The translations under genes were made by a program, and so were the position numbers. From the NCBI GenBank assembly GCA_964654805.1, contig CAZZJU010000003.1:1-32886 (forward strand): a DNA stretch of 32,886 nucleotides, given 5' to 3'. This stretch comes from an uncultured Thermotogae bacterium (GTDB taxonomy: Bacteria > Bipolaricaulota > Bipolaricaulia > UBA7950 > UBA9294). The notes beneath the pieces are model-generated. The model was not told the DNA's origin. It was given only the letters and a program-made list of their open reading frames with translations, and made no database searches. This document shows, in pieces, positions 4,446 to 32,886 of the stretch (its first letter is position 1; each line of letters starts with the position of its first letter).

Positions 4446-6086
4446 ATGAAAATTACTGCGAAAAAAATGTCTTTGCCGCTGATCCGGGAACACGTTGCCG
4501 GAATTTTGCACCTGATCATGTATCCTGTTGCCGCCACTGTGTTGCTCCTCGCGTTCATCGGCCCGCGATTGGAGCTGGTTGGGCTGTTCCTCGGTCTCCT
4601 TTTGCTCTCAGTACGCAAATGGCAGCCAGTCAGCGCGGTCGGTGCTGCATTGGCGGCAATCGGATTTGGGTTCAGAGTCCGCTTTGTCACTGATCCCACC
4701 GGAGGATATTTTTTCCTTAACTGGATTTCAATTCCGCTTACGTTGGGATGGATTCTATTCATCATTTGGACGCGCGAGGCTCTGCGACGTGGGTTCCCGC
4801 AACGCGGGATCCAGCTCGCGATAGACATGATTTTAGTCCTCACTGCGTTGCTCCTCGGGCTAGCCTCGCCGCAAACCCGCACTTTACCGGTCGCTTTCTA
4901 TATTCCCATCGTCTCTCTGTTCCTCATCGCCCTCGAGCTGAAACGAGCATTGAATGACGCGTCGATTAAGGAAGATCATTCGGCAATTGCGTTTATGTTA
5001 GCATTGTTCGGAATAAGCGGAGCGATGAAGGGAGCGGTGTCGATTTCCCTCATCGGGCCACTTGCCACGCTCGGATTCCCGTTGTTCGCCACTGCTCAGC
5101 TCAAGTTCATGATCGGGGGTGCTGATGAAATCGTATTTTCATCCCACCGTTTCTCAATAACCGGCTTTCTGGTGACTTCACTCCTCGTCTCAAGTGCGTT
5201 TACCATCGCGGCGGTGGGATTCGCCAAAAGCACCCCTGCGTACGCCATTGTCCCCGTGGCGCTAACCTTAGGATTATTGGTTTTCCAACGCGTCGGAAGC
5301 GGAAGCAAAAGATCACGGCTCATTGTGCCCGAAGGAGAGCGATTCGCCTTTGGGATCAGGTTCGCTGCTATATCCCTCGATGATGCTGTAGTGCGCGTGG
5401 AACGGATGCTCAGGGAAAAAGGGAATGGACGATTCGTCGTCACCCCGAACAGCGCTTCTATCATAAAGGCAGAGATGGAACCGGCTCTGCTCACCGCCTA
5501 TGAACAGGCAGATCTTGTGCTTCCGGACGGGATCGGTGTGGTGTGGGCAAGTCGACTTCTTGGAATACCCATTCCCATGCGAGTAACCGGTGTCGATCTG
5601 GTAGAGCGCGTCCTCTCTCGAGCAGGGGCCTCCGGAACGCGGGTCTTCCTGCTCGGGGGAAGACCCGGTGTAGCGGCCCGGGCGGCGGCTCGGCTGAAAG
5701 CGCGGTATCCCGACCTCATCATAGTCGGGATACATCACGGATACTTCCACAATGATGATAAAGTGATAAACACGATCGCCGCAGCGAATCCTGACTTGGT
5801 GCTAGTGGGAATGGGCGTACCCCGCCAAGAGTTGTTCATGCTCACTGCTCGAGCGAAACTCACCGGAGTAGTGATGATCGGAGTGGGCGGGGCGCTCGAT
5901 CTGTTCGCCGGCGACTGTCGAAGAGCCCCTGAAATCTGGCAACGTCTCGGATTGGAATGGCTCTACCGGCTGATTCAAAATCCGCGCCGGATTGCGGAAG
6001 TAATTATGGTCTTCCGGTTCGCCATCCGAGTGCTGCTTCTGTGGGTGTCACTATTGTCCCGACGGCTTGCTCTCCAAGAGGATTAA
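4446..6086 (+). CDS. WecG/TagA/CpsF (GT26) glycosyltransferase with an N-terminal multi-TM degenerate TagO/WecA-like domain
   Basis: C-terminal half has VVTPN, ADLVLPDGIGVVWA, RVTGVDL, VGMGVPRQE, GVGGALD, RAP and LGLEWLYRL. The N-terminal ~290 aa are hydrophobic and resemble GT4/WecA. Start uncertain (4446 or 4467). Confidence 0.85.
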   Translation: MKITAKKMSLPLIREHVAGILHLIMYPVAATVLLLAFIGPRLELVGLFLGLLLLSVRKWQPVSAVGAALAAIGFGFRVRFVTDPTGGYFFLNWISIPLTLGWILFIIWTREALRRGFPQRGIQLAIDMILVLTALLLGLASPQTRTLPVAFYIPIVSLFLIALELKRALNDASIKEDHSAIAFMLALFGISGAMKGAVSISLIGPLATLGFPLFATAQLKFMIGGADEIVFSSHRFSITGFLVTSLLVSSAFTIAAVGFAKSTPAYAIVPVALTLGLLVFQRVGSGSKRSRLIVPEGERFAFGIRFAAISLDDAVVRVERMLREKGNGRFVVTPNSASIIKAEMEPALLTAYEQADLVLPDGIGVVWASRLLGIPIPMRVTGVDLVERVLSRAGASGTRVFLLGGRPGVAARAAARLKARYPDLIIVGIHHGYFHNDDKVINTIAAANPDLVLVGMGVPRQELFMLTARAKLTGVVMIGVGGALDLFAGDCRRAPEIWQRLGLEWLYRLIQNPRRIAEVIMVFRFAIRVLLLWVSLLSRRLALQED

Positions 6087-23686: not shown

Positions 23687-25168
23687 ATGGAAGACTCACT
23701 GTTCGAAGCACGGTTGGAGAAACTCTCCCGGTTACGTGCGCAAGGCATAGATCCTTATCCCCCGCGTGCCGAGCGCAAAGATTCGATTGGCTACTTGGTT
23801 TCCTGCTACTCTGAGCTTAATCCGGAAGAGCGCAGTGGGGACCGAGCATCGATCGCCGGACGAATTATTGCCATTCGCAGAATGGGAAAAGCGAGTTTTT
23901 TCGATTTGCGCGATGGAACCGGGAAGATTCAACTCCACGCCGCTGCCGACATCCTTGGGGAGGAGGAGTACAAGCTGCTGCGAAACTGTGATATCGGTGA
24001 CTTTATTTCGGTAACGGGAGAGGTCTTCCGCACCAAGCGCGGGGAGCTAACTGTCGAGGTGGAGGGGTGGAAACTCCTTTCCAAGGCGCTTCGACCTCTG
24101 CCCGAGAAGTGGCACGGGTTGAAAGATGTTGAGCTGCGCTATCGCCATCGGGCGCTTGATCTGATCGCCAACGACGACGTACGCGAGAAGTTCGTGCATC
24201 GTTCGCGGATGATCGCAGCAATGCGTAGATTCCTCGACCGCCGTGGCTTCCTCGAGGTGGAGACCCCGATCATGCAGCCGATCGCCGGTGGGGCGACAGC
24301 ACGACCGTTTGTCACCCACCACAACGCCCTCGACATCGACCTATACCTGCGCGTCGCTCCTGAGCTCTATCTGAAGCGACTCGTCATCGGGGGACTTGAG
24401 CGGGTGTACGAGCTCGGGAAGAACTTCCGCAATGAGGGAATATCCACCGAGCACAATCCGGAGTTTACTACCCTAGAGATCTATGAGGCCTACTCCGATT
24501 ACGAGGGAATGATGACCCTGGCCGAGGAGCTGATCTCGGAGAGTGCGCGCGAGGTCCTTGGGGATACTGTGATCACCTATCAGGGAAAGACGATCGACTT
24601 GACGCCTCCGTGGCGGCGCGTTGGCCTCCTGGACGCGGTGGAGGAAGCAACCGGAATCGTGGTATCAGGCAAGCCAGCGAAAGAGATTGTCGCTCAAGCA
24701 CGGGATAAAGGGATCGCCCTTCCAGAAGAAGAGCTATCCAGGGGAAAACTGATCGAAAAGTTGTTTGAGGACTTCGTCGAGCCGACCCTGATCCAACCGA
24801 CGATCGTCAAGGACTACCCGATCGAGATCTCCCCTCTCGCCAAGCGCAAGCCAGGAAGCGATGAGTTGGTCGAGCGATTCGAGCTGTTTATCGGTGGAAT
24901 GGAGGTAGCAAACGCGTTCACCGAACTGAACGACCCACTGGACCAGCGCGCCCGGTTCGAGGCACAGGAACAGCTACGGGAAAGCGGGGACGAAGAGGCG
25001 CAACGGATCGACGAAGACTTCCTCTTCGCCCTAGAACACGGAATGCCTCCCACCGGAGGCATCGGGTTCGGAATTGATAGACTGGCAATGCTGTTCACTG
25101 ATTCTCCGTCCATACGCGAAGTGATCCTCTTCCCCACCCTTAAAGGGAAGAAGGAGGACAAGAAATGA
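23687..25168 (+). CDS. lysS: Lysine--tRNA ligase (class II)
   Basis: RRMGKASF, LRPLPEKWHGL, EVETP, GGATARPF, LRVAPELYLKR, FRNEG...HNPEFT, RFELF, GMPPTGGIGFGIDRL. Confidence 0.98.
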   Translation: MEDSLFEARLEKLSRLRAQGIDPYPPRAERKDSIGYLVSCYSELNPEERSGDRASIAGRIIAIRRMGKASFFDLRDGTGKIQLHAAADILGEEEYKLLRNCDIGDFISVTGEVFRTKRGELTVEVEGWKLLSKALRPLPEKWHGLKDVELRYRHRALDLIANDDVREKFVHRSRMIAAMRRFLDRRGFLEVETPIMQPIAGGATARPFVTHHNALDIDLYLRVAPELYLKRLVIGGLERVYELGKNFRNEGISTEHNPEFTTLEIYEAYSDYEGMMTLAEELISESAREVLGDTVITYQGKTIDLTPPWRRVGLLDAVEEATGIVVSGKPAKEIVAQARDKGIALPEEELSRGKLIEKLFEDFVEPTLIQPTIVKDYPIEISPLAKRKPGSDELVERFELFIGGMEVANAFTELNDPLDQRARFEAQEQLRESGDEEAQRIDEDFLFALEHGMPPTGGIGFGIDRLAMLFTDSPSIREVILFPTLKGKKEDKK

Positions 25169-25737
25169 ACCCAGTATTAAGTCGGGTAGCTCGGCGCACC
25201 GATTTGCTAATTGAAGCGCTATTCCGTTGGGACCGGGAGACGCTGCAAGCGATCAGCGAACATCCGTGGTTGAAGAAACTATCCCTGTTCTTCCTTGTTG
25301 CCACTTATCTCGGGGACGGTTACCTGTGGGGCGGACTCGCCCTTGGATTGATCCTGTTCGGTCGACCAATCGACCGCATTTACATCTTGATCGGGCTCGC
25401 CGTATCAGTCGTCAACATTGCGGTATTCCGCATGTTTAAACTCGTATTCGCCCGCGAACGGCCGGTGCTGGTGATCAATTCGCTGCGTTCGCGGATGATC
25501 GATTCCTATTCCTTCCCGTCCGGACATTCCACCGTATCGTTCGGGCTGGCGTGGGTGATTACTTCATTTTACCCCCACCTGCCGATTCAATTGGCGGCTT
25601 ATTTCGTTGCGATAACGATCGGCATCTCCCGCATCTATTTGAAAGAACACTATCCCCTCGATGTCATCGGAGGAGCGGTACTCGGATCGTTCGTAGCCGC
25701 ATACCTTGTTCCTGTCTTCTCCAAGCTGTTCCTTTGA
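25165..25737 (+). CDS. PAP2-family membrane phosphatase
   Basis: K-x6-RP (KLVFARERP), SFPSGHS, SRIYLKEHYPLDV. Confidence 0.9.
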   Translation: MNPVLSRVARRTDLLIEALFRWDRETLQAISEHPWLKKLSLFFLVATYLGDGYLWGGLALGLILFGRPIDRIYILIGLAVSVVNIAVFRMFKLVFARERPVLVINSLRSRMIDSYSFPSGHSTVSFGLAWVITSFYPHLPIQLAAYFVAITIGISRIYLKEHYPLDVIGGAVLGSFVAAYLVPVFSKLFL

Positions 25738-28972: not shown

Positions 28973-29000
28973 TTGACTGAAATACCCCTGCTGGTAAAAT
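28973..29000 (+). promoter_or_regulatory. Sigma70 promoter with extended -10 for the thioredoxin reductase-like gene
   Basis: TTGACT-16 nt-TAAAAT with TGn before the -10. Confidence 0.6.
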
Positions 29001-29047
29001 TAAATGTCCCATCTAATCGCAAAAAACGGACTCTTCAGGGAGGAGAT

Positions 29048-30052
29048 ATGTACGATTTAGTGATAATCGGAGGCGGCCCCGCTGCGCTGACTGCGGCGAT
29101 CTACGCCGCCCGCAAGATGCTGAATACAGTGTTGGTTACGAAAGATCAAGGAGGGCAGCTTCTGCTGACACGGGAAATCGAAAACTGGCCGGGAACGCTC
29201 TCCATCGGGGGGTACGATCTCGTGCAAGCGTTTGTCAAGCACGTGGAGCGCTATTCCGTGGAGCAGCGTGTCGGACGTCCGGTGACCGCGGTGCGGTCGG
29301 ACGGAGAGCACTTCGTCGTGGAAATAGAAGGCGGGGAAACACTTTCGTCCAAGGCGGTACTCATCGCCACTGGAGGGCGCAGCCGGCCGCTCAACGTACC
29401 GGGAGAGAAAGAGTTTACCGGACGCGGGGTCTCCTATTGCGCTACCTGTGACGCTCCTCTCTTTTCCGGGAAGCCAGTCGCGGTGATCGGGGGAGGGAAC
29501 TCCGCGTTTGAGGCGGTTATTGACCTTCTACCGATCGCCACTGAGATACATGTGGTGGACGTCGCCGATCACTGGTTCGCCGATCCGATCCTGCAAGGAC
29601 AGGTTCTCGGCGTGGACAAGGTCCATACATACCAACAGCACAGAGTGGTTGAGGTCAAAGGAGATCAATTCGTAAATGCACTGGTGATCGAAGACATGAC
29701 CTCCGGAGAGAAGAAGGAACTACGGGTAGACGGTGTATTCATCGAGATCGGCCTGATCCCAAATTCCGATTTCCTTAAAGGGTTCATCGAGATCAACAAC
29801 CGGGGGGAAATCGTGGTCGACGAGGATATGCGTACCTCGGTCCCCGGGGTGTTCGCCGCCGGCGACGTGATCAACCGGACCGACAAGCAAGTCGTGATCT
29901 CCGCTGGTCAGGGGGCGAAGGCAGCCCTGTCCGCCTACCGTTACCTCGTGGAGGGAGGGAAGCTGGAGGCGCGTGATGCGGTTTCGCCAACTCCGAAGAA
30001 GGAGGAAAAGAAACCCGAGTCCTCCCTGTTCATTCCGCCACGGAACAACTGA
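29048..30052 (+). CDS. Thioredoxin reductase-family FAD-dependent disulfide reductase (AhpF C-terminal-like)
   Basis: YDLVIIGGGPAAL, IATG, GRGVSYCATCD, VIGGGNS, TSVPGVFAAGD. SD GGAGGAG before ATG 29048. Confidence 0.9.
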   Translation: MYDLVIIGGGPAALTAAIYAARKMLNTVLVTKDQGGQLLLTREIENWPGTLSIGGYDLVQAFVKHVERYSVEQRVGRPVTAVRSDGEHFVVEIEGGETLSSKAVLIATGGRSRPLNVPGEKEFTGRGVSYCATCDAPLFSGKPVAVIGGGNSAFEAVIDLLPIATEIHVVDVADHWFADPILQGQVLGVDKVHTYQQHRVVEVKGDQFVNALVIEDMTSGEKKELRVDGVFIEIGLIPNSDFLKGFIEINNRGEIVVDEDMRTSVPGVFAAGDVINRTDKQVVISAGQGAKAALSAYRYLVEGGKLEARDAVSPTPKKEEKKPESSLFIPPRNN

Positions 30053-30076: not shown

Positions 30077-30108
30077 GCCCGGTCTGTGTAACAGGCCGGG
30101 CACTTTTT
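30077..30108 (+). terminator. Rho-independent terminator after the reductase gene
   Basis: GCCCGGTCTGT-gta-ACAGGCCGGGC stem (one G-U pair) followed by ACTTTTT, between convergent genes. Confidence 0.7.
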
Positions 30109-30952
30109 ACCCCAGGAACTTGGCGGTGAACAACGCAAATATCCCTACTCCCCAGCAGTAATATGCGAAATATCCCAGCCGTCCCCTCTGCAGCAGGCGC
30201 AGCAACCAGCGCAGAGCGATGATTCCCGTTATCAGTGCGAATAGTCCTCCCACCAAGTAGGGGCCGAACAGAGATGAACTGATCTGCTCCCGATGGATTT
30301 TCAGGACTTCGATGAGCATCGCCCCAAGGATCGCTGGGATGGCGAGAAGGAAGGAGAACTCAGCCGCCAGCTCCTGCCGCAACCCGAGAAGGAGCCCGGC
30401 TCCAATGGTGAACCCACTCCGGGAAATCCCGGGGAAGATGGCAAGTCCCTGCATCGTTCCGATGATAAACGCATCCCAGATGCGCATTTTACTTAGACTG
30501 CGGTTGTTTACAGCATGCCGGCCAGCGAAAAACAGGAGCACCCCGGTGATCAAAAGGCTTATTCCAACGGCCAGTGCAGAAGTAAACGCCCGCTCAATCT
30601 GCTGTTGCAGGAGCAGCCCAATGACGGCGGTAGGAATGGTCCCGATCAACAGCAACCACCACAGGCGTATCCCATCGGCTCTCTCTCGATCCGTCAGCTT
30701 GATCGGAACAACATAGCTTAACGGTACACGCAGCAATTGGACCACGCGGGACCGGAAGATCCATAGGACCGCAAGTAGGGTAGCAAAATGCACCGTTGCG
30801 TCGAGTAACAGCAGCTTTTCTGCACCCAGCTGCGGCTGGCGCCAAAACACCTGAAGCAGGACGAGATGTCCGGAGCTGCTGATCGGGAGAAATTCCGTCA
30901 CTCCTTGTACGATTCCCAATACGATAACAAACAACCACATGCCCGCTAGCAT
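30107..30952 (-). CDS. uppP: Undecaprenyl-diphosphate phosphatase UppP/BacA
   Basis: LGIVQGVTEFLPISSSGHL, HFATLLA, TIPT, QGLAIFPGISRSGFTI, AAEFSFLLAIPAILGA. Start 30952 or 30940. Confidence 0.95.
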   Translation of the reverse strand: MLAGMWLFVIVLGIVQGVTEFLPISSSGHLVLLQVFWRQPQLGAEKLLLLDATVHFATLLAVLWIFRSRVVQLLRVPLSYVVPIKLTDRERADGIRLWWLLLIGTIPTAVIGLLLQQQIERAFTSALAVGISLLITGVLLFFAGRHAVNNRSLSKMRIWDAFIIGTMQGLAIFPGISRSGFTIGAGLLLGLRQELAAEFSFLLAIPAILGAMLIEVLKIHREQISSSLFGPYLVGGLFALITGIIALRWLLRLLQRGRLGYFAYYCWGVGIFALFTAKFLG

Positions 30953-31051
30953 AGCTCCACCTAGGCCAGCGTGCAACCCATGGTTGCGCTTGTCACTCGG
31001 TCCGGGCTATGCTGCACAATATCGCATGGTCAGACGCGAGAAAGAGGGAAA

Positions 31052-31696
31052 ATGCAACATATTATTTCAGTTATCATTGAAACCGTGGATAAAATGGGTT
31101 ATCTCGGCATCGTCGCCGCGATGTTCCTGGAAAGCTCGTTCTTCCCGTTCCCGAGCGAGCTCGTGCTGCCGCCGGCTGGGTACCTCGCAAGCCAAGGGAA
31201 GATGGAACTGTGGGCCGTCGTCCTTCTCGGAATCCTGGGCTCGATCCTCGGAGCACTGTTCAATTACTGGATCTCGCTTGCGCTCGGCCGACCGCTGATC
31301 CTGCGGCTGGGCCGGTACTTCGGCCTCACTGAACACGCCTACGCCCGGGCGGAATCGTTCTTCCGCCGCCATGGCGAGATATCGACGTTTGTCGGGCGGC
31401 TCATCCCCGGTCTTCGCCAGTACATCTCACTCCCTGCTGGACTGGCGCGCATGTCGATCTCCCGGTTCGTTCTATTCACCGGGCTCGGGGCTGGGATCTG
31501 GACGAGCGTCCTCGCCCTCATCGGCTATCTCATCGGGAATAACCAGGCTCTTGTAACTAAATCGCTCCACCGGGTCACCCTCTATATGGGGATCAGTGTT
31601 GTCGTGTTGGTCACCGGTTACCTTATTTGGTATAAAAGACGAAAAGAGCCGTCAGTAGATTATGAGAACGATGGTGACAACAACGGAGGGAATAAA
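31052..31696 (+). CDS. dedA: DedA-family membrane protein; no stop codon, runs in frame into the ATPase
   Basis: Own translation (absent from the ORF track): MQHIISVIIETVDKMGYLGIVAAMFLESSFFPFPSELVLPPAGYLA...FVGRLIPGLRQYISLPAGLARM...WYKRRKEPSVDYENDGDNNGGNK. SD GAGGG before ATG 31052. Confidence 0.9.
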
Positions 31697-32692
31697 ATGC
31701 TGGATCAGAAACAGCAGGACGGCGATGACGCGCAAAAGGCGAGCGTAGAAGAACTGTTCGCCAAGTTGTCCAGCAGCCCGCAGGGACTGAGCTCGGCCGA
31801 AGCGCAAAAACGGCTCGCTCAGTACGGACCAAATGATATCGAGGAGAAGAAGCAGAGTTGGGTCCTCAAATTTCTCAGCTACTTCTGGGGACCAATCCCT
31901 TGGATGATCGAAATCGCGGCCGGTCTGTCCGCAATTCTCGGACACTGGGACGAGCTCTACATCATCATTTTCCTGCTTGTGTTCAACGCGGTGATCGGTT
32001 TCTGGCAGGAGTTCAAAGCGTCGAGTGCTTTGGATGCCTTGAAGGGGGCATTGGCACTCAAGGCACGGGTACTCCGGGACGGTAAATGGCAAGAGATCCC
32101 AGCTAAGGAACTCGTCCCCGGCGATTACATCCGGATCGTCCAAGGTGACATCATCCCAGCCGACGTGAAGCTGGTCGAGGGGAAGTATTTGACGGTAGAC
32201 GAATCAGCGCTTACTGGGGAATCCCTGCCGGTAACCAAGCAACCCGGTGACGTGACCTATTCAAGCTCCATCGCCCGTCAAGGAGAGATGAATGCCCTCG
32301 TGATCGGGACCGGAATGCACACCAAGTTCGGACGCACCGCCCAATTGGTGCAGAAGGCCGGTGCGGTCTCTCACCTTCAGCGCGCCGTGCTTCACATTGC
32401 CGATTACCTCATCTACATTAGCTTGGGGTTGGCGACCCTGCTCGTCATCGTCCAGTTATTCCGAGGCGATCAGCTGCTCACCATATTCCAGTTCGTGTTG
32501 ATCCTGGTTGTGGCTTCCATCCCGGTGGCCATGCCCGCGGTTATCTCGGTGACGATGGCATTAGGGGCACTGGCTCTGTCGCGAGAAAAGGCGATCGTCT
32601 CGCGCCTTCAAGCGATCGAGGAGATGGCTGGCGTCGACGTGTTGTGCAGCGACGAGACGGTAACCCTGACCCAAAACAAGCTCACGATGGGG
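31697..32692 (+). CDS. Plasma-membrane-type proton-efflux P-type ATPase (P3A), N-terminal half only
   Basis: Own translation: GLSSAEAQKRLAQYGPN, FWGPIPWMIE, VLRDGKW, LVPGD, GDIIPAD, VDESALTGESLPV, SIPVAMPAV, IVSRLQAIEEMAGVDVLCSDETVTLTQN. Own SD GGAGGG lies 6 nt before ATG 31697. Confidence 0.88.
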
Positions 32693-32886
32693 CATGGTCG
32701 AGCTCTCCTTGGACTGCCCGATGGCGAGCAGATCCTGGCGTTGGCCAAAGAGATCGAGACCAAGGGCCTCTCTGTCCGTGAGGTCGAGCGGCTTGTGCGT
32801 TCTCTCAGCGAGGAGCCCGCTCAAGCGAAGGCGCCCGCTCCCAAAGTCGTCGAGCCTGTGCTCGTGCCGTGGGCCAAGTCGATGGA
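32681..32886 (+). other. In-frame ParB/Spo0J-like fragment (post-HTH region), runs off the window
   Basis: LTMGHGRALLGLPDGEQILALAKEIETKGLSVREVERLVR matches the ParB pattern LSMGHARALL...GLSVRE.E.LV. Confidence 0.8.

Follow-up and report, generated by a model that had tools for sequence, protein, structure and literature searches.

A dedA gene open in frame into a P3A-type H+-ATPase gene in an uncultured bacterium: probably a recent, lineage-specific fusion by loss of one base

A DedA-family gene runs in frame, with no stop codon between, into the gene for a P3A-type proton-pumping ATPase in the DNA of an uncultured bacterial species, and at least three assemblies carry this read-through. The fusion is species-specific, the relatives examined keeping the two genes separate. 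The explanation that we rate as probable is a nascent fusion confined to one lineage, which arose by the loss of a single base, is recent and tolerated, and has a function that is putative.

The window, i.e. the whole stretch of 32,886 nucleotides that was analysed, is an entire contig (C3) of a metagenome-assembled genome, here called G000. The host is an uncultured vent bacterium, and its nearest records are labelled Bipolaricaulota. Near the 3' end of the window lies what may be regarded as a cluster of cell-envelope and ion genes, with uppP on the minus strand and, divergent from it, a putative operon of dedA (UptA-like) and then the P3A pump (Table 1). uppP, assigned by both the BacA and TIGR00753 models with the latter's cut-off of 217.5 bits just exceeded, has its probable start at ATG 30952 (TTG 30976 gives the longest reading frame) and is 75–99 bp from the dedA ATG, adjacent and divergent as the initial annotation had it. 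The oxidoreductase gene, of which the product is presumably thioredoxin-reductase-like, stands upstream of the locus as a conserved neighbour in the genomes G000, G001, G003 and G005; matches 82–86% identical to it lie upstream of dedA in the loci L029 and L034, and one occurs also in L011. The hairpin between it and the uppP 3' end has 11 pairs and a T-run. A scan of the plus strand for promoters and terminators in the dedA-to-pump interval found none.

Table 1. Coordinates of the features of the dedA-pump locus in the window
Feature	Coordinates	Strand	Basis or remark
Pyridine-nucleotide disulphide oxidoreductase	28973..30052	+	Pfam Pyr_redox_2, 168.5 bits
Terminator-like hairpin, interval between oxidoreductase gene and uppP 3' end	30077..30101	+	Consensus scan, pattern match only
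uppP/bacA, undecaprenyl-diphosphatase	30107..30976	-	Pfam BacA, 263.2 bits; TIGR00753, 218.9
DedA (UptA-like) part of fused frame, 215 codons	31052..31696	+	Pfam VTT_dom; NCBIfam best match UptA
A4 run	31642..31645	+	Native; 0 gaps in X1 and X2; identical in L109
Out-of-frame TAG	31656..31658	+	Stop in other frame; coincidental
Shine-Dalgarno-like GGAGGG	31685..31690	+	Sequence; 6 nt before ATPase ATG
Fusion point, Lys215 AAA then ATG directly	31694..31699	+	Sequence; relatives' protein tails
P3A-type H+-ATPase, N-terminal 332 codons	31697..32692	+	TIGR01647, 424.3 bits for window part
Phosphorylation motif, D-E-T-V-T in window	32651..32665	+	Contig-end artefact or rare variant
ParB-HTH-like chimeric contig end, joined in frame, not ATPase	32693..32886	+	Pfam HTH_ParB, 43.9 bits

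The listing of open reading frames has one frame, from 30971 (or from ATG 31052) to 32884, that is without a stop up to the window end. Between ATG 31052 and ATG 31697 are 645 nt, or 215 codons, and the 611-aa translation has Pfam domains of both partners: VTT_dom at residues 33–160, Cation_ATPase_N at 229–293 and E1-E2_ATPase at 336–511. In these respects the initial annotation was accurate, as it was in pointing to the AAAA run, to the TAG in another frame and to the Shine-Dalgarno-like GGAGGG, all of them seen in the sequence, and to the retention by the ATPase of its own Shine-Dalgarno box and ATG. The GGAGGG is inside codons of the DedA tail (N-G-G), and an equivalent purine-rich box precedes the separate ATPase gene of G003.

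Support for the junction comes from Logan contigs of the runs X1 (16.2 kb, depth 17) and X2 (4.7 kb), with 0 gaps across 31637–31703, and from the metagenome contig L109, in which the junction is identical and lies in a reading frame of 990 aa, open at its 3' end, with 963 aa in the DedA-ATPase frame. With differences from the window at 17 of 3443 positions, L109 represents another strain, and because X1, X2 and L109 all have the junction without indels, the fusion is not a sequencing error. The independent assemblies number three and not four, X2 and L109 being probably from one sample. A further run, X3, from which the window probably derives, has 0 differences to it and contigs that leave 31614–31707 uncovered, so that it is silent on the junction, on which a fourth, X4, with only small conserved pieces, is uninformative. 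Contigs hide minor alleles and the support for the junction is contig-level; an unfused allele in the population would be compatible with such data.

The 3' end of the window is a different matter. X1 and X2 have A at 32654 and G at 32661, and so D-K-T-G-T where the window has D-E-T-V-T; L109 too reads D-K-T-G-T, and has C at 32687. Over the 40 nt that lead up to a misjoin, three bases are peculiar to the window, two of them inside the phosphorylation motif. Because X1, X2 and L109 agree on D-K-T-G-T, the window is judged faulty there, with D-E-T-V-T in our judgement an artefact of the contig end or a rare variant. Beyond 32692, where X1 and X2 have loose ends to the window, X1, X2 and L109 all run on as ATPase, and the ATPase continuation joins another contig of the genome, C112. 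The last 194 bases of the window, 128 of which differ from L109, are a chimeric ParB-like tail outside the ATPase, and a 65-aa query from it gave no match in the genomes of 12 relatives. Neither this tail nor the aberrant catalytic motif is to be annotated as biology.

The assignment of the pump to the P3A H+-ATPases, made in the initial annotation, is borne out. The 748-aa L109 copy scores 968.3 bits with TIGR01647 against a cut-off of 615.5; among partial pieces, C112 (L006) reaches 531 (the window's piece is in Table 1). The window has the A domain, M1–M4 and the start of the P domain, the rest is G000:C112:1-1503, and L109 joins both parts. The best solved relatives are AHA2 and Pma1, the E-value for AHA2 being 2e-191 versus 4e-85 for the best non-P3A pump. 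The motifs TGES, DKTGT, TGD and GDGxND are all present, D-K-T-G-T is invariant in an alignment of 37 sequences, and Asn in M2, Arg in M5 and Asp in M6 are identical to the AHA2 proton path in the HMMER alignment to 5ksd_A (we take these to be N106, R655 and D684 of AHA2). In motifs and proton-path residues the pump resembles the P3A pumps AHA2 (5ksd) and yeast and Neurospora Pma1 (7vh5, 1mhs); it is unlike them in being bacterial, in having no long C-terminal regulatory domain and in having DedA in frame before it. When the faulty end is set aside, the ATPases of the two strains are separated by 6 synonymous changes and 0 non-synonymous ones, a pattern that indicates purifying selection. Prediction of a complex of the L109 ATPase (748 aa, 37-row alignment) with DedA 1–205 gave a score of 0.00, which is neutral on binding.

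The DedA part is full-length. Its VTT domain (PF09335; 31148–31531) scores 75 bits against a cut-off of 33.9, with the full model (1–123) covered, and 79.8 bits in the genome search; its last transmembrane helix ends W-Y-K-R-R-K, and an acidic and polar native tail (31646–31696) follows. The best NCBIfam match is UptA (NF052604), protein residues 1–198 being aligned to 1–194 of the model's 198. With 133.7 bits it falls short of the 250 set for equivalogs, and the protein is therefore named UptA-like and not UptA. The link to UptA that the initial annotation drew from the DedA family is supported to that extent. With UptA (B. subtilis YngC and the S. aureus homologues) it shares a single VTT/DedA domain of ~200 residues and genomic linkage to C55-PP phosphatase genes; unlike UptA, it has a score under the cut-off and, in the window, continues without a stop into a P-type ATPase. 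A role in C55-P transfer is putative and fits the context, orthologues having uppP or PAP2 beside them. E27, E36, R116 and R122 are invariant in an alignment of 33 DedA sequences, YqjA standing outside it, and we assume their equivalence to the membrane-embedded E39, D51, R130 and R136 of E. coli YqjA. All 47 invariant columns of that alignment are kept, by construction, the protein being its first row. Between the window and the L109 strain the DedA part has 0 synonymous and 2 non-synonymous differences, both in variable columns of the alignment; these are too few to interpret and would be compatible with relaxed constraint. A second VTT-domain gene in the genome (C9, 153 aa) adjoins an LCP-like gene.

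In related loci all 29 DedA reading frames end in a stop, at 196–226 aa. The two genes are adjacent and separate in G003, the dedA stop being 8 nt before the ATPase ATG, and in L033 dedA and its stop are followed by a 52-residue remnant of an ATPase; in both of these PAP2 replaces uppP. G005 has uppP-dedA with no ATPase after dedA, and G016 the ATPase without dedA. uppP adjoins dedA in the window, G001 and G005; PAP2, as well as a DedA-PAP2 fusion, is found beside orthologous dedA in G003, L033 and L030–L032/L035. Across species-representative genomes a pump is downstream in 2 of 80 DedA loci (67 of the 80 with at least 1 kb visible). A conserved uppP-dedA-ATPase module, for which the initial annotation had suggested comparing related genomes, is not supported by the gene orders of G003, L033, G005 and G016, and what it had set down as counting against its reading was found in part: relatives with separate genes and no conserved neighbourhood.

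How did the stop come to be lost? The closest DedA relatives, the proteins P0184, P0185 and P0186 (92%, 86% and 85% identity), share a K-E/A-P-S-V...N-N-G-G tail in the window's frame and stop at 219, 225 and 214 aa. The tails of P0184 and P0185 end D-A-G-S-stop and D-A-G-S-E..., and the window read from 31696 gives N-A-G-S-E-T-A-G-R-R-stop, the ends of these two tails matching ATPase-start-like sequence one base out of register. From these protein tails, and not from the relatives' DNA, this species appears to have one base fewer directly before ATG 31697. Because P0184–P0186 share the tail frame, the A-run is native and the TAG coincidental. The same shared frame rules out an insertion of 1 nt in the A-run, which the initial annotation had proposed as the origin of the fusion; the merging change seems instead to sit directly before the ATPase ATG. 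The insertion idea had seemed supported in that the G005 DedA ends at 201 aa, the shifted-frame length; aligned with G005 by MAFFT at the DNA level, the region gives an ambiguous result.

The course of events may be pictured as follows. Related species have the two genes of the operon separate and tightly packed, and in the organisms of P0184 and P0185, to judge from the protein tails, the dedA frame would extend a few codons past ATPase-start-like sequence in the other register. With one base missing at 31696/31697 the native DedA tail would read into the pump, no stop being left in the DedA frame because of that loss directly before the ATPase ATG. Ribosomes starting at 31052 would then make a DedA-ATPase polypeptide of ~1000 residues, and those starting at the retained Shine-Dalgarno box and ATG (31685–31699) the free pump. 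Such a fusion would be topologically permissible, because DedA proteins end, and P-type pumps begin, in the cytoplasm, with ~40 flexible residues between the two. The state of the DNA, its occurrence in several assemblies, the separate genes of the relatives, the family assignments and the contig-end artefacts are observed; the loss of a base as the cause, the making of the fused product and the cell's tolerance of it are inferred. The event was most likely recent and neutral or nearly neutral, rather than the evolution of a coupling device.

Adjacency of dedA to uppP and to pap2, and dedA-pap2 fusions, are described in the available parts of two papers (Roney and Rudner, bioRxiv 10.1101/2022.02.03.479048; Sit et al., PMC9876793). 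The dedA orthologues here resemble those pairs in having uppP or PAP2 beside them; they differ in that the partners there, in the available text, are phosphatases, a P-type ATPase partner being unmentioned in that text of both papers, the supplementary domain-architecture tables of which could list one. For YqjA the available part of a preprint puts the N-terminal helix in the periplasm and the C-terminus across the membrane from it, and reports a functional C-terminal GFP fusion (bioRxiv 10.64898/2026.09.20.752871); the soluble domain is C-terminal in all five DedA fusions that were checked.

The uppP/PAP2-dedA linkage is thus already published, and the DedA-ATPase pairing is without a second example found. 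In a protein collection from which fused products (5 sequences, that of L109 included) are themselves absent, so that the search had no positive control, there were 0 DedA-ATPase fusions among proteins of 957–2730 aa, and 0 of the 33 DedA fusions of 300–956 aa had an ATPase domain; of 10 N-terminally extended ATPases (from the best 150 representatives) 0 had a VTT domain. The sensitivity of these negative searches is limited. The 30 nearest Atlas clusters likewise held no DedA-ATPase combination, none of the papers listed by title and abstract in a literature search deals with a DedA-P-type ATPase fusion, and no conserved family of such fusions in independent lineages was met with. The initial annotation had known of no such fusion, in agreement with the protein-set and Atlas searches, and the search that it suggested, for proteins combining VTT and ATPase domains, gave no second case. 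In merging adjacent, co-oriented genes with loss of the stop and retention of the internal start, the case is like the 'Rosetta stone' fusions made by a one-base indel; unlike these, it has two polytopic membrane proteins as partners and no second example found.

Could the frame nevertheless be an error of assembly or sequencing, the genes being separated in the true genome by a stop or by a frameshift? The same contig is indeed faulty and chimeric at its 3' end, and no Logan contig of X3 covers the junction; against this, the sequence of 31637–31703 is the same to the base, with no indel, in three assemblies, each of a different study, the junction is ~1 kb from the faulty end, and a four-base homopolymer is not error-prone for short reads, which together make an artefact very improbable. 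A join that was selected, with the P3A pump energising or acidifying the membrane next to a C55-P flippase of UptA type that depends on protons and is itself downstream of UppP, is unlikely in our estimation, if less so than any other competing account. dedA followed by a P3A pump recurs in the clade (G000, G003, the L033 remnant and, putatively, the organisms of P0184 and P0185), the genes are packed closely enough to suggest co-translation, strains 0.5% apart have the fused state in common, a persistence that could also mean selection, dedA orthologues adjoin two unrelated types of C55-PP phosphatase (UppP and PAP2), which fits a UptA role, and DedA proteins are, in the available text, suspected PMF-dependent transporters (PMC9876793). 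Yet the fusion is in one species, every relative examined keeping the stop; the pump is dispensable beside dedA, being absent in G005, a remnant in L033 and without dedA in G016; it is downstream in so few of the DedA loci; comparable architecture was not found in very large protein sets; and the retained Shine-Dalgarno box and ATG argue for continued production of the free pump. Of the self-energised C55-P recycling module that the initial annotation imagined, the adjacency and the fusion stand, the conserved module does not, and the fused function is putative. That the cell produces a DedA-H+-ATPase of ~1000 residues which functions as a single protein we hold to be doubtful, a shade more so than the selected join.

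Read-through may on the other hand have been disabling, the tethered DedA being crippled, perhaps unable to dimerise, and its gene heading for loss, with the pump made from its own start and C55-P recycling left to another VTT-domain protein or to spontaneous flipping, a reading that is unlikely and slightly more so than the working single protein. There is indeed the second VTT-domain gene on C9, the 0/2 synonymous to non-synonymous count for DedA can be set beside 6/0 for the pump, and YqjA is mainly dimeric according to the available part of the preprint (bioRxiv 10.64898/2026.09.20.752871), the tethered pump here being 90 kDa. Nonetheless DedA is preserved from end to end with its two changes in variable columns, two substitutions are without statistical weight, and DedA proteins often carry, and tolerate, additions at the C-terminus. 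A recent, tolerated fusion by one-base loss is the reading to which we hold.

If the fused product did after all function as a single protein, it would mean, together with the clade's dedA-pump operon, that a UptA-type flippase is proton-coupled and can be energised locally by a dedicated ATP-driven pump, and the fused protein and UppP would make up a self-contained C55-P recycling unit; a natural covalent link of DedA to a pump would be a hint at proton coupling of C55-P movement and a ready construct for testing it. As the evidence stands its value is more modest, that of a clean, datable case of two polytopic membrane-protein genes merging by what was probably the loss of one base. The published linkage of dedA to uppP and PAP2 meanwhile gains a further group, Bipolaricaulota, where one type of phosphatase has also been exchanged in place for the other.

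The initial annotation's account of the frame stands: it is unclosed from ATG 31052, the ATPase Met at 31697 lies exactly 215 codons past the DedA Met with GGAGGG 6 nt ahead of it, and Pfam finds VTT followed by ATPase domains. As far as assemblies show, this continuous DedA-ATPase frame is real. Logan contigs from two other runs, of two other studies, cross the junction with 0 indels, that of run X1 being 16.2 kb (depth 17, 2 differences from the window) and that of run X2 4.7 kb (11 differences). A pattern search that left the length of the A-run at 31642-31645 variable matched one metagenome contig, L109, which like the window has four A's; it carries an oxidoreductase gene, uppP (minus strand) and one ORF of 990 aa (963 aa from the DedA ATG) that is open at the contig end and has VTT, Cation_ATPase_N, E1-E2_ATPase and Hydrolase domains. 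Since 17 of 3443 aligned bases differ from the window, L109 represents another strain of the same species, and as it carries X2's differences the two are probably from one sample, so that three independent assemblies are counted. A further run, X3 (0 differences from the window and probably its source), has no contig over 31614-31707 and is neutral on the junction. Two alternative contigs inside X3 show an A/G polymorphism at window position 31335 (His or Arg at DedA residue 95), where G is fixed in X1, X2 and L109.

The window is an entire contig (C3) of a MAG of 187 contigs, 1.71 Mb and 92% completeness; runs containing its sequence are labelled hydrothermal vent metagenomes, and the nearest public records with the same dedA bear the labels Candidatus Bipolaricaulota or Acetothermia.

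Features of the dedA-pump locus, of its continuation and of the corresponding intervals in relatives
Feature	Position	Strand	Remark
Oxidoreductase gene	28973-30052	plus	near 3' end of contig
Terminator-like hairpin	after oxidoreductase gene, 3' end of contig		sequence pattern
uppP	30107-30976	minus
Open frame DedA-ATPase	from ATG 31052, no closing stop in window	plus	75-99 bp beyond uppP
VTT/DedA domain	residues 33-160 of open frame		Pfam
Cation_ATPase_N	residues 229-293 of open frame		Pfam
E1-E2_ATPase	residues 336-511 of open frame		Pfam
ParB HTH domain (unexpected)	final 50 residues of open frame		Pfam
Remaining 500 residues of pump	G000:C112:1-1503 (L006)		start of contig C112
Oxidoreductase-dedA interval with DedA-PAP2 fusion gene and PAP2 gene	L012 (G003) 888-2385; L033 3138-5001	same strand
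Oxidoreductase-dedA interval with uppP	L011 (G005) 572-1438	opposite strand

The pump is a P3A proton ATPase, as had been proposed: it scores 968 bits with TIGR01647 (cut-off 615.5), its best solved relatives are by far AHA2 and Pma1, and in the alignment to AHA2 the proton-path Asn, Arg and Asp are identical. The best NCBIfam family of the DedA part is UptA with a score under the equivalog cut-off, which points to a UptA-like protein. No DUF368 was found in the genome. A second VTT gene (G000:C9:26916-27242; L111 1471-1932, minus) is short, 153 aa, and a few genes away from it is a 334-aa ORF that is probably LytR-CpsA-Psr-like (LCP-like).

How did the two frames come to merge? The initial annotation suspected a 1-nt insertion in the A-run. 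With one A fewer the frame would stop at TAG 31656-31658 and give a 201-aa DedA, and its resemblance to that of the related genome G005 made this attractive at first. The idea is ruled out by the closest DedA proteins among 5.8 billion sequences, P0184 (92% identity, 219 aa), P0185 (86%, 225 aa) and P0186 (85%, 214 aa), all of which share the polar tail in the window's frame, with 17 of 18 tail residues identical in P0184. Conserved in all three relatives, the tail is thus native to this lineage of DedA proteins, and the TAG in the other frame is coincidental. The three proteins terminate after the tail, P0184 4 and P0185 11 residues past the position of the window's ATPase Met, and the extra residues of these two (D-A-G-S and D-A-G-S-E...) correspond to what the window encodes from 31696 in a frame shifted by one base (N-A-G-S-E-T-A-G-R-R-stop). 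To judge from the protein tails alone, the simplest reading is that in the organisms of P0184 and P0185 the 3' end of dedA would extend, in another frame, over the beginning of the pump gene, and that the stretch from the Lys215 codon to the ATG is a base shorter here, which would have merged the two.

The end of the contig, about 1 kb away from the junction, is faulty. Past 32692 the window has ParB-like sequence and X1, X2 (in loose ends) and L109 have continuing ATPase, which passes directly to the opening codons of contig C112 of the same MAG; according to L109, C3 and C112 are only about 10 codons apart. The ParB-HTH-like coding sequence at 32693-32886, in frame with the cut-off ATPase, may come from another organism of the sample since 12 related genomes gave no match to it; ParB_N has no match anywhere in the MAG. 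The three window-specific bases (32654, 32661 and 32687) all lie within the last 40 nt ahead of the misjoin; two of them turn the catalytic D-K-T-G-T (32651-32665) into D-E-T-V-T, a Leu to Met change is also among the three, and the other assemblies have the canonical letters. Positions 32693-32886 are a chimeric contig end, and the ParB tail and the three bases are assembly artefacts or rare variants, not biology; an annotator taking D-E-T-V-T at face value would wrongly regard the pump as catalytically dead. C112 has a transporter-like ORF after the pump part.

Conserved clustering of uppP, dedA and the ATPase gene is not supported by the relatives. In the more distant G003 the dedA stop is followed after 8 nt by the ATPase ATG, the two being separate genes. 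In locus L033 the dedA stop is followed after 9 nt by a 104-codon ORF (5640-5954) of which only the first 52 residues match a P3A pump before divergence, and which is apparently what a deletion has left of a pump gene. A stop ends dedA in 29 of 29 ORFs of related loci (196-226 aa), and in G003 and G008. Among 80 DedA loci of species-representative genomes (67 with at least 1 kb of downstream sequence) a pump is 3' of dedA in two, that of G003 (L029) and the L033 remnant. G005 has the window's oxidoreductase-uppP-dedA order with an unrelated gene after dedA, and the window's pump query found no P3A pump in its genome; G016 has the pump (81% identity) without dedA.

What does vary in place is the phosphatase. 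UppP adjoins dedA in the window, G001 and G005, and PAP2 adjoins the orthologue in G003, L033, L030-L032 and L035, with a DedA-PAP2 fusion in addition in G003 and L033; both arrangements occupy the same site downstream of the oxidoreductase gene. Two unrelated types of C55-PP phosphatase have been exchanged at one site, and this supports a DedA role in C55-P recycling. The relevant part of a review (PMC12826051) has BacA/PAP2 and then DedA/DUF368 acting in successive steps, and passages of earlier work (bioRxiv 10.1101/2022.02.03.479048; PMC9876793) already report fusion of dedA to pap2 as well as adjacency of dedA to pap2 or uppP. The window also has a PAP2-family gene (190 aa, 25165-25737) 5 kb upstream of uppP, with only 33% identity over 88 residues to the PAP2 adjoining dedA in G003.

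Since no stop remains, ribosomes starting at 31052 should make DedA joined to the pump, and free pump should also be made from the conserved SD and ATG. P-type pumps have a cytoplasmic N-terminus. K-R-R-K follows the last DedA helix, and the soluble domain is C-terminal in five of five DedA fusions checked. For E. coli YqjA, a section of bioRxiv 10.64898/2026.09.20.752871 places the termini on opposite sides with the N-terminal helix periplasmic, and describes a functional C-terminal GFP fusion. On these grounds topology permits the join. Between the last DedA helix and the first conserved pump helix there are about 40 residues, most of them acidic.

We consider the event to be a stop loss between two tightly packed operon genes, real and species-specific, and probably a neutral, nascent gene fusion. 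That the whole is an artefact is very improbable with the junction crossed in independent assemblies. A selected coupling device is unlikely, the 'self-energised module' of the initial annotation being without support from conservation, with separate genes or no pump in relatives. A disabling read-through is about as unlikely. Between the window and the L109 strain the pump differs by 6 synonymous and 0 non-synonymous substitutions and is clearly under constraint; the DedA part has 0 synonymous and 2 non-synonymous, numbers too small to interpret.

A DedA-P3A-pump frame was not found elsewhere in our searches, in keeping with the earlier statement that no such fusion was known. The protein collection gave 0 matches to the fused architecture at 957-2730 aa and no ATPase domain in any of 33 DedA fusions with lengths of 300-956 aa; VTT occurred in 0 of 10 ATPases with long N-terminal extensions, among the best 150 of 71,817 representative matches, and the combination in 0 of the 30 nearest Atlas clusters. 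All these negatives are of limited power, because the product of L109 is itself missing from the collection. The DedA fusion partners that were found include metallophosphatase, rhodanese, acylphosphatase and NUDIX domains, and in the DedA homologue P0014 (641 aa, 45% identity) the middle and C-terminal domains of a Mur ligase are fused at the C-terminus, a further DedA architecture with a link to the cell wall.
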